Below are positions 15,541 to 20,460 of a stretch of 33,475 nucleotides of DNA, piece after piece; position 1 is the first letter of the stretch; each line of letters opens with the position of its first letter. The position numbers were made by a program, and so were the translations under genes. The DNA lies in assembly GCA_002923335.1 (NCBI GenBank), contig BEHZ01000002.1:1-33475 (forward strand), written 5' to 3'. The notes beneath the pieces were generated by a model. The model had not been told where the DNA came from. It saw only the letters and a program-made list of their open reading frames with translations, and ran no database searches. The DNA comes from a bacterium HR23. GTDB lineage: Bacteria > Chloroflexota > Dehalococcoidia > Lucifugimonadales > HRBIN23.

Positions 15541-15664
15541 AGCGTCCCCCATTTGCGCCCTGTAGGGCGTGCCGGGTGTCTCAAGGGAAGTGCCCCTCGC
15601 CCCATTGTCATGAGGGGGGGTGCTCCTTTACCATGTAGCCAGGCGCGCCGAAAGGAGGCGTTGG

Positions 15665-17722
15665 ATGGCCACCTTCACCCCAGATCGCCTACGCAATGTT
15701 GCTTTGCTGGGCCACACCGGTTCGGGGAAGACCACCCTGGGGGAGGCCCTGCTGTTTGCTACAGGTGCCATCTCCCGCATGGGGCGTGTGGAGGACGGCA
15801 ACACGGTGGCCGACTATGAGCCGGAGGCAGTGAAGCGGCGGGGCAGTGTCCAGTTAGCCCTCTTGCCCTGCTTCTGGAAAGAGCACAAAATCACCTTCAT
15901 TGACACGCCCGGTTACTTCGACTTTACAGGGGAGGTGATTTCCGCCCTGCGGGCTGTGGACGCAGTGGTGTTGTGCGTCTCGGCCAATGCTGGCGTGGAA
16001 GTCATCACCGAACAGATGTGGGAGCGTGTCCAGGAGCAACACCTGCCCTGTCTGATCGTCATCACCAAGATGGACCGGGAGAACGCCGACTTCTCCCGCT
16101 GTCTGGCCAGTATCCAGCAGACCTTTGGACGGCAGTGTGTGGCCTACCAGATACCCATCGGTGCCGCCCAGACCTTTAGTGGCATCGTTCCCCTTCTGCC
16201 CCTGCCGGAGAGCATCCCCGCCGAGGTGAAGGCCCAGGTAGAGCAGGCACGGGAGCGCCTGGTAGAGGCCATCGCCGAGACCGACGACGCCCTGGCCACC
16301 AAATACCTGGAGGGGGAGGTTATTGCCGACCAGGACCTCCAGCACGCCCTCCGGGCAGGGGTCGTGCAGGGGAAAGTGGTGCCCGTGCTGGTAACCAGCG
16401 CCCTGCAGGGGAAGGGCGTTCCCCAACTGCTGGACGCGGTGCTGGCCCTTTTGCCCTCGCCTGCCGAGAGCCCCCCTGTGGAGGCCACCAACCCCGCCAC
16501 TGGCCAGAAGGAGGCTCTGCGGACCGACCCTTCCGGCCCCCTGGCCGCCCTGGTCTTCAAGACCACCGCCGACCCCTATGTGGGGAAACTCTCCCTCTTT
16601 CGGGTGGTCAGCGGGACCTTCACCCCGGGAGAGGTGTTCAACGCTACGAAAGGGCAAACGGAACGGGTGGGGCAGGTTTTTCTCCTGCGGGGCAAGACCC
16701 AGGAAGCGGTGCCCTCTCTCATGGCGGGGGACATTGGTGCAGTTACCAAACTCCAGGCTACCAGCACCGGCGACACCCTGTGCAACCGGGACCACCCCCT
16801 GGTGGTGCCCGGCCTCTCCTTCCCCGAGCCCCTCTACTCCCTGGCGGTGTATCCCAAGACCAAGGCCGACCTGGATAAACTCGGACCGGCCCTCGCCCGC
16901 CTAGTGGAGGAAGACCCCTCCCTCCGCTTCACCCGGGAGCCGGGGACGGGGGAGGCGCTTCTGCAGGGCCTGGGGGACGCCCACCTGGATGTCGCCCTGC
17001 AGCGGGCGCAGCGCAAGTTCGGCGTTGGCCTGGTGGTGCAGACCCCCAAGGTGCCTTATAAGGAAACGGTCTCCGCCCGTGCCGACCGTGTAGAGAGCAG
17101 GTATAAGAAGCAGACGGGTGGCCACGGCCACTACGCCCACATCGTGGTGCGCATTGAACCTTTGCCCCGAGGGTCGGGCCTGGAGTTCGCCGAGGAGGTG
17201 GTCGGGGGGGTGGTGCCCAAGGAATTCATCCCGGCGGTGGAGAAGGGGGTGAAGCGGGCAGCCGCCGAAGGGGTGGTGGCGGGCTATCCCGTTACCGATG
17301 TGCGGGTCGTCCTTTTTGACGGCTCCTCCCACCCGGTAGACTCGGCCAGCGGGGACTTTGAAATCGCCGGCTACGAGGGCCTGCGCAAGGGAGTTCTCCA
17401 GGCCAACCCGGTGCTCCTGGAGCCCATTATGCGCCTGGAGGTAACGGTGCCCGACCAGTTCAGCGGGGATGTGATAGGCGACCTGAACGGGAAGCGGGGG
17501 CGCATCCTGGGGATGACGCCCCTGGGCAACGGCAAGACGCAGATAGATGCCCTGGTGCCTTTGGTGGAGGTGCAGAGGTATGTGCTGGACCTGCGCTCCC
17601 TTACCCAGGGGCGGGGCACCTTCCGCATGACCTTTGACCACTACGAGGAATTGCCTCCCCATTTGGCCCAGAAGGTCATTGAACAGGTCAAGCAGGCGCG
17701 TGCCGAGGGAGGAGGGAGGTAG
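15665..17722 (+). CDS. Elongation factor G paralogue (EF-G2-like translational GTPase)
   Basis: G-domain motifs [17 protein letters not shown] and TKMD, plus EF-G domains II-V over about 685 aa. SD AAAGGAGG lies before ATG 15665. It is not in an rpsL-rpsG-fusA-tuf context and diverges from canonical AHIDAGKTT / DTPGHVDF. Confidence 0.9.
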
Positions 17723-17736
17723 GAAGTAGGAGCGGT

Positions 17737-18006
17737 ATGCGGGAAATACCCAGAGAGGAATACCTGGCCTTTAGGGCCACACACCCTTCTGTGGTCATTG
17801 AAGGGAAGTGCGTGCGCCTGCAGGACGGGGGGAAAATTCCCCTTTTGCAACCGGCCGAATTTCGCTTGGAAACCACGACGGTCTGGTCCTTTGAAAATAG
17901 GGGTAAGTGGGCAACGCACCGGGGGGACTACCGGGGGAACTGGGCACCAGAGATCCCCAGGAACCTCATCTTGCGCAAATTGCAGGAGTTGTGGCCGCAG
18001 GCATAG
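17737..18006 (+). pseudogene. N-terminal fragment of a DNA methyltransferase (N4/N6 methylase family), truncated before the SAM-binding motif
   Basis: The block TTVWSFENRGKWATHRGDYRGNWAPEIPRNLILR is one I recognise as immediately preceding the (D/V)LDPFxGSGTT motif in a subgroup of site-specific DNA methylases. Here the ORF stops about 10 codons later with no catalytic or SAM motifs. Confidence 0.55.
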
Positions 18007-18021
18007 CATGAGGTATAACCC

Positions 18022-18999
18022 ATGGCTAAACCGAACTACTTTCTCGTCTCGGTGTCAACTCGCCAACATCTGGACCTGTGCCTGAGGTATGCGCTGGCTG
18101 GGTTTACAAACAGCATCGCAGGGGTGTGGACTTTCGTTGAAATTCGTGAGGGCGATTTCGTTTCCTTCCTTTACGGCGCCCGCGCGTTCAACCTGTATCA
18201 GGTTGTCGCCAAGGAGGCAATACGGCGATTTGTCGGAATGCCCCCATGGCCACCTGTTTCGTTCAGGCAGTCTGGCAGGTCATACCATTTTCCGTTTCGG
18301 CTTCACTTGCGCCCGGTCCGCAAGTTTTGTGAGTCTTTGGTGCGCCGAGAATTTGCCTATGTAGCCGAGAATCTGCTCTTGCGGGCCGGCTACCGCAAAA
18401 CGCATTTCCAAGCAGACCAAACAACCTTGCAAAATGTCTCGCAAATGGGCGAGCTTTGGAACGACGTTGGTAAGCGCTTGGTAATGCGGCCCTACTGCAC
18501 CTTTGAGCCGCAGTTCACGCTTGCCGGAACGCACGAGGACATCCCTTTCGTTTTCCATTTGCACGAGACCATTTTGCAGGCTGCAATCAGGCAATATCTG
18601 TCCGGCGTGGCGAACCTCACTCGGTTCTTGTCAATGGCCGGCTTTAATGGTCTCTCGGCAAGCGCACTTGAAGCATTGGGCGAGAAGGCGCTATCGCAAG
18701 GGCATGTTGACATCCTGCTCAAGGACCGAGTTCCCATTGCACAAGCAAGGAAAATTGCTGTGGAAGTCAAACTGGGCACAGCGCAGCCAAGTCATTTGAA
18801 GCAGTTGAGGGGCTACATGGAGGAACTGGGAGACGAATGCATCGGAGGAGTTTTGATCGCCAAGGAGTTCTCCAAAACCATTGTGCGTCAGGCAGCGGGA
18901 CTGAAAATCGGCTTGGTTCGTTACGGACTCAACCTTGACAATAGTAGACATTACACTTTTGACGAAATTCTGTCCAAACTGCAGTTTTACTCAGTTTGA
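18022..18999 (+). CDS. EVE/PUA-like domain fused to a NucS/DUF91-like PD-(D/E)xK nuclease domain (candidate modification-dependent restriction endonuclease)
   Basis: N-terminal pattern NYFLVSVSTRQHLDLCLRYALAGF...EGDFVSFLYG...NLYQVV...YHFPFRLHLRPV is EVE/PUA-like. The C-terminal GHVDILLKD...KIAVEVKLGTAQPSHLKQLRGYMEEL...GGVLIAKEF shows the D..ExK core and NucS-type layout. GC content is clearly lower than in the flanks. Confidence 0.65.
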   Translation: MAKPNYFLVSVSTRQHLDLCLRYALAGFTNSIAGVWTFVEIREGDFVSFLYGARAFNLYQVVAKEAIRRFVGMPPWPPVSFRQSGRSYHFPFRLHLRPVRKFCESLVRREFAYVAENLLLRAGYRKTHFQADQTTLQNVSQMGELWNDVGKRLVMRPYCTFEPQFTLAGTHEDIPFVFHLHETILQAAIRQYLSGVANLTRFLSMAGFNGLSASALEALGEKALSQGHVDILLKDRVPIAQARKIAVEVKLGTAQPSHLKQLRGYMEELGDECIGGVLIAKEFSKTIVRQAAGLKIGLVRYGLNLDNSRHYTFDEILSKLQFYSV

Positions 19000-19004
19000 C
19001 TCCG

Positions 19005-19790
19005 TGCATCCTTCCAGCTGGAAGTCCGATCAACCCTCCAGCGGAAGCGGTAAGGTGAAAGGTCCGGCTTGCGGCCGCGGCGGTGTTGACGGCATCGGCG
19101 CGGGATGCAGGGTCGGATGCCTCGGCGCCACAAGGATTGCCGAAAGGCGTCGCTGTTGTAGCCTTTGTCGGTGACCGGCACCTGGGGCCGAGGGCGCGGC
19201 CGTCCGCGCCGTCGGGGAACCCGGACCGTCTGCACTGTCGCCTCTGTCCACCGAATCTCGGCCGGTTGCGCACCGGCCACCATGCCCCCAATGGGCAGGC
19301 CCTGGCCTTCTGTCACCAGCATCCACTTGCTCCCTTTGCCTCGTATAGTCACGTCCACCGCCTCGCCCCCCTTTTGGCCGGAACAAACGTGCCGTCCAGG
19401 AAGGCCTGGGTCCGTTGCCGTTGGCCTCGCTCCTCCAGGATGGCCAGACACGTCCGCCAAATGCGTTCCCAGACGCCTTCCTGCTGCCACCGCCGGGACC
19501 GCCACCAGTAGTCACCGGACTCCCATCCTCCGCGGCATGTCTTCCCACCGACACCCCGTGCGCAGCGAATACAGAATCCCGCTCAAGGTCCGCCGGTCAT
19601 CTGCCCTCGGCTTCCCCCGCCCCCCTGGGGTGGAAGCAACGGCCGGATGGCTATCCACTGCGCATCCTGAGATCCCTGACCGTGGCCAGCCTCCTTCCCA
19701 TAGGGCTGACCATAGTTAACCCCATCTTCGGGTGTTTTTGAAATGGCTTGTAGGACCTTTTTCCCCGTGCGAGGGAAGGGCTGTCCAACT
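19005..19790 (-). mobile_element. IS5-family (IS427/IS1031-like) insertion sequence remnant; transposase multiply frameshifted and 3'-truncated
   Basis: Minus-strand translation across three frames gives typical transposase blocks. These are SQDAQWIAIRPLLPP / GKPRADDRRTLSGILYSLRTGCRWEDMP / WRSRRWQQEGVWERIW..AFLDGTFVPAK / GGEAVDVTIRGKGSKWMLVTEGQGLPIGG..VTDKGYNSDAFRQSLWRRGIRPCIP..YRFRWRVDRTSSW. At least 4 frame changes are needed, and the similarity ends near 19010. The element ends are not defined. Confidence 0.75.
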
Positions 19791-19800
19791 TGGAACGCTG

Positions 19801-20460
19801 TCATTCCCGTAACTTCTCCAGTTTCTCGTCTTTCCCCGCCAGAATGAAGGTGTCATCGGGCTGAATGCGCTCGTCCTCGGCCGGGAGGAGGATCACGTCC
19901 TTCCCCCGGCGGATGGCCAGCACCGCTAGGCCATATTTATCCCTCGGCCCCGAAAGCCCCGCCTCCTTCAGGGTCATGCCGTGGAAGGCTTCCGGCAGGC
20001 GCACCTTGCTCAGGCCAAAGCCGGGGGCTACCTCCATATACTCCAGCACATCGGGGGTGAAGAGACTGCGGGCCACCCGCTCCCCCATCTCCTGCTCGGG
20101 GTAGACCACTCGATCGGCCCCCACCCGTGCCAGGGTGCGCCCGTGGAGGTCATCCCGTGCTCGTGCCACGATATAGGGCATGCCCATGCTCTTCAAGAGG
20201 ACGGTGCACATAATGCTGGCCTGCACATCGGAGCCGATGGCGATAACCGCGGCGTCAAAATTGGGGGCGCCCAGTTCCCGCAATACCGCCTCGCTGGTGG
20301 CGTCGGCCTTGACGGGGTAAGTAATCTGCCCCACCAGGGCCTGCACCAGTTGCTCGTTGGTGTCTATCCCAAGCACATCGTAGCCCATCTGGTAGAGGGT
20401 GCGGGCCACCCGTGCCCCGAAGCGTCCCAGTCCCACCACGATGACCTGTCGTTTCGGCAT
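19801..20460 (-). CDS. TrkA/KtrA-type K+ uptake regulatory subunit (RCK N+C domains)
   Basis: Rossmann motif VVGLGRFGARVARTL, about 219 aa, directly downstream of a TrkH/KtrB-family gene. Confidence 0.9.
   Translation of the reverse strand: MPKRQVIVVGLGRFGARVARTLYQMGYDVLGIDTNEQLVQALVGQITYPVKADATSEAVLRELGAPNFDAAVIAIGSDVQASIMCTVLLKSMGMPYIVARARDDLHGRTLARVGADRVVYPEQEMGERVARSLFTPDVLEYMEVAPGFGLSKVRLPEAFHGMTLKEAGLSGPRDKYGLAVLAIRRGKDVILLPAEDERIQPDDTFILAGKDEKLEKLRE

Follow-up and report, generated by a model that had tools for sequence, protein, structure and literature searches.

The DNA analyzed here, which we call the window, comprises positions 1 to 33,475 of contig BEHZ01000002.1 from bacterium HR23, a member of the Dehalococcoidia (Chloroflexota), and the subject of our analysis is an intact open reading frame (ORF) whose 325-aa product joins a putative base-reading domain to a NucS-like nuclease domain. 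The gene stands on an islet of low guanine-plus-cytosine (GC) content, together with the remains of a DNA methyltransferase gene (Table 1). This islet is the lowest-GC 1.3-kb stretch of the whole window; the GC content is 0.52-0.57 across about 17600-19100 and 0.62-0.70 in the flanks, it ranges from 0.38 to 0.58 in the 60-nt lines within the nuclease ORF, and at third codon positions it is 0.61 in this ORF and 0.81 in the paralogue of elongation factor G (EF-G), complete at 15620-17722, that forms the left neighbor of the islet. At the right edge lies an insertion sequence (IS) remnant, whose transposase gene matches the NCBIfam profile IS5_3 at E = 2.9e-18 over positions 109-227 of the 258 in the profile. 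A three-frame translation of this gene reveals at least three changes of frame, and its C-terminal end is missing at the overlap with the last nuclease codons; no terminal inverted repeats were detected for it. The original prediction, made from the sequence of the window, had described an intact ORF and a fall in GC content between the end of the EF-G paralogue and an IS remnant, and our analysis confirms each of these points. The remainder of the window is core chromosome, with rpoB, rpoC, alaS, a Clp ATPase gene, trkA and trkH.

Table 1. Features of the islet in the window and of the related loci used for comparison. L numbers are loci of the context comparison; M.B is a type B methyltransferase with its length, R the endonuclease and "gene" the reader-nuclease gene; dN/dS is the ratio of nonsynonymous to synonymous substitution rates.
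Feature	Position	Strand	Basis or remark
Low-GC islet (methyltransferase stub and nuclease gene)	17723..19000	.	GC 0.535 against 0.649 in the rest of the window (standard deviation 0.018, z = -6.2)
N-terminal stub (89 codons) of a type II DNA methyltransferase, "type B"	17737..18006	+	PADLOC MTase_II PDLC03376
Junction and ribosome-binding region	18002..18021	+	Start of DNA homology to the cassette of the closest relatives
Reader-nuclease gene, 325 aa, intact	18022..18999	+	ORF; 1148 homologues; dN/dS 0.08-0.34
N-terminal domain, aa 1-145, predicted YTH-like/PUA-like, with candidate base-reading pocket	18022..18456	+	Foldseek
Most conserved family block, aa 110-137	18349..18432	+	Invariant or near-invariant alignment columns
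C-terminal NucS/EndoMS-like PD-(D/E)xK nuclease domain, aa 216-325	18667..18996	+	PDB profile match, Foldseek
Catalytic codons	D230 = 18709-18711, E248 = 18763-18765, K250 = 18769-18771	+	
Decayed IS5-family transposase gene	18987..19804	-	NCBIfam IS5_3, Pfam DDE_Tnp_1_2; right edge of the islet
L098: M.B(300)-R-orf85-orf156 against L091: M.B(218)-gene-orf85			Downstream ORF identity 71-77% (against the L098 and L101 copies)
L099: M.B(299)-R-orf53-orf134 against L097: M.B(224)-gene-orf61-orf135			Downstream ORF identity 85% and 80%
orf85 copies	L091:2828-3085, L064:6056-6313, L098:5680-5937, L101:5436-5690		
orf61-orf135 / orf53-orf134	L097:6998-7547 / L099:5675-6230		
Short conserved ORF upstream of the nuclease gene	L014:4941-4997, L094:5894-6004; also L019, L001, L018		

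The nuclease gene had been described as the single intact ORF of the islet, a description that overlooked the methyltransferase stub directly upstream. The PADLOC model matches this stub at E = 9.6e-15 over profile positions 9-55 of 249. It belongs to a group that we call type B, a permuted relative of PF01555, and, compared over 38-48 aa with the corresponding part of the type B genes at three other loci (L091, L080 and L031), it shows 62-66% identity. When aligned with full-length members of 299-300 aa, the stub ends before the motifs "VLDYFCGAGTT" and "HPPY", and it contains neither motif I nor motif IV. The stub stops short of the S-adenosylmethionine (AdoMet)-binding motif and is presumably inactive.

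Comparison of the window with loci L014-L018 by blastn gives 78-80% identity over 18002-18981 only, with the homology starting at the stop codon of the stub; together with the base composition, this confinement supports the horizontal acquisition proposed for the gene. An insertion into the methyltransferase gene, instead of a replacement, was considered and rejected, as neither a C-terminal methyltransferase remainder nor a DpnII remnant was found downstream of the nuclease gene in the window. In close relatives of the window protein, a DpnII-family gene comes next at the place held here by the transposase gene, and the nuclease/transposase junction may mark a deletion. Searches at the islet revealed neither repeats, direct or inverted, in its flanks nor any promoter, terminator, tRNA gene or Rfam element. 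One locus whose match covers residues 1-33 only (L013) was tried as a relative with an "empty site" and discarded, since it shares no DNA similarity with the window. In Armatimonadota, a short conserved ORF (e.g. MSQTTQLITMREVTWQGA; 36 aa in L094) stands directly 5' of the nuclease gene, whatever the upstream neighbor. A loose resemblance to the start of the window stub (MREIPREEYLAF) is seen in its M-R-E/K-V-T-W-Q...EY.A motif; the match is very short, and the ORF may be either a leader peptide or all that is left of the same methyltransferase gene.

All structural statements made here rest on one AlphaFold2 model, built from 42 homologues and compared with the PDB by Foldseek. The model of the 325-aa protein has a predicted local distance difference test score (pLDDT) of 91.7 and a predicted template modeling score (pTM) of 0.90. 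Its N-terminal 145 residues or so match the YTH domains of Mmi1, YTHDC1 and CPSF30 with probability 1.0 and a target-normalized template modeling (TM) score of 0.5-0.62, while the whole chain finds its best matches in the modification-dependent enzymes MspJI and AspBHI, and also VcaM4I (best E = 1.3e-4; the MspJI-family entries are 4f0p at E = 1.3e-4 and 4oc8 at E = 1.3e-3). The EVE-HNH enzyme VcaM4I stands no higher than rank 34 in this search, and the fold matches listed include no winged-helix protein and no DpnI. The C-terminal domain matches NucS/EndoMS (2vld) with probability 1.0 and a root-mean-square deviation of 4.2 over 107 columns. A profile of the family, searched against the PDB, likewise retrieves NucS 2vld and EndoMS 5gke at E = 2e-3 and aligns D230, E248 and K250 with the D, E and K of the NucS active site. 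The match of the single protein to Pfam NucS_C (E = 1.7e-3, 18.8 bits) is below the gathering score of 24, the match to NCBIfam NucS (NF003270; E = 7.5e-6, 25.2 bits) is below the cut-off of 216, and the NucS profile match spans residues 219-298 only. The D...E-x-K, NucS-like core of the original prediction is therefore real, its catalytic residues aligning with those of NucS, and at the same time weak in sequence and below the family thresholds. The proposed two-domain architecture fares similarly: the predicted fold supports a PUA-superfamily reader followed by a NucS-like nuclease, and the N-terminal half is detected by no sequence profile.

The family to which the protein belongs is large and uncharacterized, and, as the original prediction had supposed, it has no named member: our literature search yielded no paper on the family. 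Its homologues (Table 1), collected at E <= 1e-3, are nearly all about 325 aa long, and among the matches listed the identity to the window protein is 53-77%, the named ones coming from Armatimonadota, Dehalococcoidia and Caldanaerobacter. A search of 1.8 billion representative proteins gave 281 clusters at 50% identity, which indicates a compact family. Many of its loci come from hot-spring, hydrothermal-vent and subsurface metagenomes. Phage origin and plasmid carriage were considered and rejected, as searches of IMG/VR viral contigs, INPHARED/GenBank phages and PLSDB plasmids gave no matches. At least 12 representative clusters (among P0162-P0219) consist of proteins of about 185 aa that match residues 142-325 only and start at a conserved Met142 (SQMG); these forms could represent a nuclease half that exists on its own, or errors of gene calling where contigs are broken.

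The dN/dS values of the nuclease gene point to purifying selection, and the residues of both domains are strongly conserved. In 92 of 93 copies the full set of E221, D230, E248, K250, Q261 and Y265 is kept, and D230, E248 and K250 are invariant in the 93 copies with the exception of one D230N (L010:843-1823). The aromatic residues F28, W36, W76, Y88 and F90 of the N-terminal domain are invariant or near-invariant, and 91 of the 93 copies keep all of these aromatics and all six nuclease residues unchanged. The most conserved block (EFAYVAENLLLRxGYRKTHFQADQTTLQ) holds the only low-confidence loop of the model (residues 122-124), and possibly contacts DNA. Four of about 90 copies carry one in-frame stop each (L029, which also has W76R, L055, L066 and L075); family copies are thus occasionally inactivated, as has been reported for Neisseria drg alleles. 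Distant relatives keep the reader and the middle part; one has an N-terminal HARE-HTH domain and others weakly match other PD-(D/E)xK modules, a shuffling of domains that is typical of modification-dependent restriction enzymes.

The genomic contexts of the gene were compared across 107 loci, many of them short metagenomic contigs and some redundant, with the specificities of the methyltransferases assigned by homology. Most of these loci have no methyltransferase within 5 kb of the nuclease gene. Behind full-length type B methyltransferases comes an NmeDI_C-family endonuclease, and the two form an ordinary type II pair; one such pair lies between mutS and ybeY (L098), a slot in which the reader-nuclease gene stands alone in five other loci (L034, L053, L060, L070 and L074). 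Judging from the alignment of operons with similar downstream ORFs (Table 1), the gene stands exactly where the NmeDI-like endonuclease would be, behind a shortened type B methyltransferase. The small ORFs without a Pfam match in these operons (orf85; orf53/61, with CxxC...CxC; orf134/135) stay downstream of either nuclease type and may be accessory or regulatory parts of the cassette.

The type B gene beside the reader-nuclease gene has 89 codons in the window, 127 in L031 and 218-224 in L080, L091 and L097. Every such copy is without the last 80 or so residues, which by analogy would belong to the catalytic fold, and the window and L031 copies stop before motif I. About 28 of 120 type B relatives among the matches listed have 212-225 aa, and the 220-aa form has a dN/dS of 0.07-0.08 against its full-length relatives; either this form has kept its function or these hosts are protected by a different enzyme. 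Between the L080 and L091 stubs, a mosaic patch of identity inside the methyltransferase shows recombination within the methyltransferase homology; their contrast in synonymous divergence was considered as proof that the cassette moves between backgrounds and was discarded, since the patch lies inside the stub instead. Stubs of D12 (Dam-class) methyltransferases, comprising the first 40-90 codons, lie upstream of the gene in two clades (L006-9 with L044; L068 with L073), and only those directly upstream of the nuclease gene were counted. A widespread class of truncated D12 genes was not accepted: the search gave only short proteins, the three D12 short genes inspected lie in assemblies full of split genes, each followed by another D12 fragment, and artefacts are probable.

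The protein is most likely a restriction-type defense nuclease that inspects a base, for which the fold, the active site, the mobile and solitary behavior, the insertion hotspots and the shuffling of domains are good evidence. As to its mode of action, we see about an even chance that it is a solitary, type IV-like restriction nuclease reading a modified base, probably a form of N6-methyladenine (6mA) other than the Dam-type G6mATC; base flipping, the identity of the mark, the dependence on modification and the role in defense are what we infer here. The YTH-like N-terminal domain would flip a base out of the DNA and check it for modification in an aromatic pocket, the base inspected being most likely an N6-modified adenine, and the NucS-type PD-(D/E)xK domain, with D230, E248 and K250, would then cut the DNA. 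The window enzyme would act alone, since the sole neighboring methyltransferase is a stub. The gene would have arrived horizontally as a one-gene cassette, and such cassettes would lodge in operons of adenine methyltransferases and restriction enzymes, displacing the endonuclease, part of the methyltransferase or both. The mark is probably not Dam-type G6mATC because the family coexists with an intact DpnA-like methyltransferase and with DpnII-family endonucleases; the protein cannot be a simple G6mATC-dependent enzyme, and the mark attacked may be another methylation pattern or a hypermodified base. Type II systems usually decay endonuclease first. In this family, the linked methyltransferase, where once present, is usually destroyed while the nuclease survives, which is the reverse of that order and therefore counts for a type IV mode. 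The fold of the reader, the MspJI-like layout and the lack of a nearby methyltransferase at most loci count for it as well.

Several observations weigh against a solitary, modification-dependent enzyme, and the first of them concern the reader domain. Residues 1-150 gave no Pfam or PDB match, either in 44 single members (Pfam, E <= 10) or as a profile, and no match to the EVE profile; the original prediction had read an "EVE/PUA-like signature" from the sequence, which our searches did not bear out, the best fold match being YTH and not EVE. HHalign against YTHDC1 (sequence verified against PDB 4R3H) gave a probability of 0.8%, and the alignment of the family aromatics to the YTHDC1 cage (W377, W428, L439) is unreliable in sequence. 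The N-terminal domain is therefore supported as a YTH-like reader of the PUA-like superfamily at the level of the predicted fold only. No model of PADLOC-DB v2 matches the protein significantly, the only hit being PDC-S01 (E = 0.012, 54 residues), in line with the earlier suggestion that it is not a recognized system.

The remaining observations on this side lie in the genomic contexts. In one clade, a complete PF01555 methyltransferase, which we call type A, stands directly 5' of the gene, and in L086 the two form a two-gene cassette with no other nuclease nearby, which looks like a classical restriction-modification (R-M) pair. Where a gap of about 500 nt separates methyltransferase and gene (L054, L067 and L092), no decayed endonuclease was detected in it. 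Type A is 53-58% identical to the second methyltransferase (M2) of pSRQ700 and 52-53% to those of Staphylococcus plasmids, in which the gene order, as in pSRQ700, is a Dam-like methyltransferase, the type A relative and a DpnII-like endonuclease. Plasmid pSRQ700 carries LlaDCHI, a GATC system related to DpnII, and we therefore regard type A as DpnA-like. In the closest relatives of the window protein (70-77% identity), the gene lies directly before an intact DpnII-family endonuclease, whose divergence broadly tracks that of the nuclease; these hosts should therefore be GATC-methylated. In one locus (L021:5285-5698) the downstream DpnII-family endonuclease gene has decayed, leaving three segments that correspond to aa 2-53, 124-156 and 208-290 of the intact protein, and the nuclease gene is intact. 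The reader and catalytic residues are identical beside the intact DpnA-like methyltransferase and DpnII, with no evident change of specificity. Furthermore, L101:4001-5430 and L102:1529-2958 each carry a 220-aa type B methyltransferase with an NmeDI_C-family endonuclease, apparently intact, behind it, and truncation at this point is therefore not tied to the reader-nuclease gene. As for a possible protective partner, the window has only the methyltransferase stub, most loci have no methyltransferase and one clade has an intact DpnA-like enzyme. Coexistence with intact GATC methyltransferases is atypical of a type IV enzyme and sharpens the question of the direction of the methylation dependence. 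The remains of an R-M operon and the coexistence with the DpnA-like methyltransferase and the DpnII-family endonuclease leave the terms "self-contained" and "targets modified DNA" of the original prediction as claims that were not established.

These contexts bear directly on the principal alternative, which we consider unlikely: that the protein is a type II-like endonuclease, sensitive to methylation and probably specific for GATC, in which the N-terminal domain would inspect the adenine and N6-methylation of this base would block cutting. The DpnA-like methyltransferase would be its cognate partner in the type A clade, and elsewhere, the window included, an unlinked Dam-type enzyme would protect the host. 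The conserved cassette of an intact DpnA-like methyltransferase with the gene, both of comparable divergence, fits this proposal, as do the position in the endonuclease slot after type B methyltransferases and the fact that a D12 M1, a beta-class M2 and a DpnII-family endonuclease all adjoin the gene, in different lineages. The very high conservation of the N-terminal domain would suit a single fixed recognition sequence. GATC is under-represented in every gene-carrying locus, with observed/expected ratios of 0.09-0.57, and in several of them no other 4-bp palindrome is as depleted; these figures come from gene-carrying loci only, without control genomes. However, at least eight distinct loci combine an intact nuclease with a linked methyltransferase that is a stub, most loci have no methyltransferase nearby, and an intact adjacent methyltransferase, which would mark a type II system, is absent beside the window copy and present only in the DpnA-like clade. 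Three unrelated families of methyltransferases would need identical specificity, the DpnII adjacency would place two isoschizomers side by side, and unlinked protective methyltransferases would be required in most hosts, including this one, whose 33-kb window contains no further methyltransferase or restriction gene among the families listed. The fold and architecture, moreover, match modification-dependent enzymes and not type II enzymes.

Palindromes other than GATC are also depleted in the window. The observed and Markov-expected counts over 1-33475 are 0/64 for GTAC, 4/75 for AGCT, 12/62 for TCGA, 42/208 for CGCG, 19/67 for ACGT and 37/103 for GATC, and in the Armatimonadota loci ACGT, GTAC, AGCT, TCGA and GGCC are likewise nearly absent. 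This avoidance suggests long exposure to many restriction systems.

The neighbors of the gene in other lineages raise a different alternative, namely a nuclease of DNA repair or strand discrimination (NucS-, Vsr- or MutH-like) that reads methylated or damaged adenine, e.g. hemimethylated GATC, and nicks nearby, which we regard as quite improbable. The gene lies beside mutS (divergent) and ybeY, fpg, ruvA, a class II ribonucleotide-reductase-like gene (nrdJ) or leuS, and in one lineage within ruvC-ruvA...uvrB, with a Holliday-junction-resolvase-like gene directly upstream. The repair genes among these neighbors, the NucS/EndoMS-like nuclease domain and identities above 50% across phyla under purifying selection speak for a repair function, which would also be compatible with GATC-methylating hosts. 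The dcm-vsr pair, a methyltransferase gene followed by a repair nuclease gene, is a precedent. The resolvase-like neighbor is a 160-aa PF10107 protein (L033:51-530, L095:5509-5991, also L048, L049 and L066), preceded in L095 by yebC-ruvC-ruvA, a methyltransferase-domain gene and a radical-SAM gene; in L096, of the same lineage, uvrB lies downstream. It is possible that the PF10107 protein and the reader-nuclease form a two-nuclease module.

Against a repair function, at least the mutS/ybeY and pyrB/pyrC slots look like insertion hotspots and not functional operons. In Armatimonadota and Fervidibacter, the gene occupies a variable slot between pyrB and pyrC, where it stands alone, with a nucleotidyltransferase/HEPN toxin-antitoxin-like gene, or before a DpnII-family endonuclease. 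We regard these two slots as hotspots because DpnII, a toxin-antitoxin pair or an R-M system is found there in related genomes; toxin-antitoxin and other nuclease genes are also found among the neighbors of the gene itself. At pyrB/pyrC, the nuclease alleles are 69-72% identical and the flanking pyrB 90-93%, so that the nuclease has diverged far more than the core gene beside it, which is the pattern of hotspot alleles and not of a core gene. The original prediction had held that homologues lying mainly in housekeeping neighborhoods would speak against a defense role. Superficially, the pyrB/pyrC, mutS/ybeY, ruvA, nrdJ and leuS contexts are of this kind, but the first two of these slots look like hotspots. 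The patchy distribution, the low-GC islet of the window copy and the pseudogenes also argue against repair, as do the absence of the NucS N-terminal domain, with a score for the NucS equivalog far below the cut-off, and the HARE-HTH-fused relatives, which point to restriction.

A related proposal, to which we assign a low likelihood, is that the protein belongs neither to the classical type IV nor to the type II enzymes and reads methylation at GATC-type sites, either as a MutH-like strand-discrimination nickase or as the second arm of a "two-sided" GATC system. The YTH-like domain would dock on the methylated parental strand of hemimethylated DNA, or on DNA with adenine methylation foreign to the host, and the NucS-like domain would cut the other strand; in a two-sided system, DpnII would kill unmethylated DNA and the reader-nuclease wrongly methylated DNA. 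If true, this would explain together the tolerance of the DpnA-like methyltransferase and DpnII, the recurrence in GATC cassettes and the mutS/ruv neighbors, and the MutH-like role would be found in bacteria without MutH.

The fold of the N-terminal domain raises, finally, the alternative that the protein acts on RNA or only binds nucleic acid, reading m6A in RNA with degradation or regulation of transcripts, so that its link to R-M systems would be incidental. The best structural matches of the domain are indeed RNA m6A readers, and some type IV-related systems have been predicted to target RNA (PMC11090510). Nevertheless, we find this alternative very improbable: the gene recurs on the same strand in operons of DNA methyltransferases and restriction enzymes, the relatives of its nuclease domain (NucS, Mrr-like, HSDR_N) act on DNA, and an archaeal YTH-McrB fusion binds 6mA in DNA (PMC12707154, PMC7641849).

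One further ORF of the window deserves mention, which matches Pfam Arch_flagellin (PF01917, E = 9e-30); the window otherwise looks bacterial, with rpoB/rpoC of bacterial type, EF-G and Clp ATPase.

If the protein is a solitary modification-dependent nuclease, its family would constitute a large and phylogenetically broad group of single-gene restriction enzymes, with a reader domain that is invisible to current sequence profiles and defense-finding tools, and it could yield a thermostable reagent with which to map adenine modifications. In several phyla, the gene lies where the endonuclease or part of the methyltransferase would be expected in R-M operons of at least two unrelated types, a pattern that would extend the "dam-replacing gene" and the DpnI-DpnII cassette swap well beyond Neisseria and Streptococcus.

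Among known systems, the protein is related to the NucS family and is not a member of it. It shares with NucS/EndoMS (PF01939, NF003270) the RecB-like C-terminal nuclease, the order of motifs and the positions of the catalytic D, E, K, Q and Y, but it lacks the NucS N-terminal domain, scores below the thresholds and behaves as a mobile cassette. Nor does it belong to the Pfam YTH or EVE families, to which it has no profile match. The END nucleases (PMC12191111) were considered as the same family and set aside, since they combine a PLD (phospholipase D) nuclease with an inactivated EndoIII sensor and form a different family.

With DpnI and Neisseria Drg/NmeBII, the window gene has in common that an endonuclease gene of foreign composition lies at an adenine methyltransferase or R-M locus as one of several alternative cassettes. 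The Neisseria drg gene has a lower GC content than its genome and lies at the dam locus, dam+ and drg+ being mutually exclusive and some alleles frameshifted (PMC516771, PMC4269198), and the pneumococcal locus holds alternative DpnI, DpnII and DpnIII cassettes (PMC12707154). By analogy, the placement of the nuclease cassette appears comparable to the DpnI/DpnII swap and to the "dam-replacing gene". DpnI and Drg differ from the window protein in architecture, being PD-(D/E)xK enzymes with a winged helix that cut G6mATC, and their exclusivity with GATC methylation appears not to extend to this family, copies of which adjoin the predicted DpnA-like methyltransferase and DpnII. E. coli Mrr, a solitary methyl-dependent nuclease, spares its Dam+ host. 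It restricts some 6mA and 5-methylcytosine (5mC) contexts, e.g. M.HhaII-methylated DNA (PMC12707154), and it parallels the target proposed here in that Dam methylation is tolerated and G6mANTC is attacked. The reader of Mrr is a winged helix and its nuclease is of the D-QxK type, without significant sequence relation to the window protein; some members of the family score weakly against Mrr_cat (PF04471).

In its probable mode of action, the window protein is most like the MspJI-type single-chain enzymes and the fusions of YTH-like domains with PD-(D/E)XK nucleases, a class already predicted by Bell et al. 2020 (PMC7641849). Like the window protein, the MspJI family (MspJI, AspBHI, LpnPI) consists of single chains with an N-terminal PUA-superfamily reader and a C-terminal PD-(D/E)xK-type nuclease; its readers flip bases and its genes are usually solitary. 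The MspJI reader, however, is SRA-like and reads 5mC or 5-hydroxymethylcytosine (5hmC), whereas the reader of the window protein is closest to YTH, and the MspJI nuclease is Mrr-like (D-QxK), whereas that of the window protein is NucS-like (D...ExK). The two have no detectable sequence similarity, and a whole-chain TM score of about 0.2 indicates that their domains are arranged differently; unlike MspJI, members of the family studied here coexist with an intact adjacent adenine methyltransferase. Thermococcus gammatolerans McrB likewise carries a prokaryotic YTH-type reader on a restriction effector, and its YTH-like N-terminal domain binds 6mA in DNA (PMC7641849, PMC12707154). That domain works with the McrB GTPase and McrC, while the domain of the window protein is fused to a NucS-type nuclease and cannot be retrieved with YTH, EVE or DCD profiles. 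What is new in the present family is the combination of a profile-undetectable reader, a NucS-type nuclease and an unusual integration into R-M operons of the GATC and NmeDI types.

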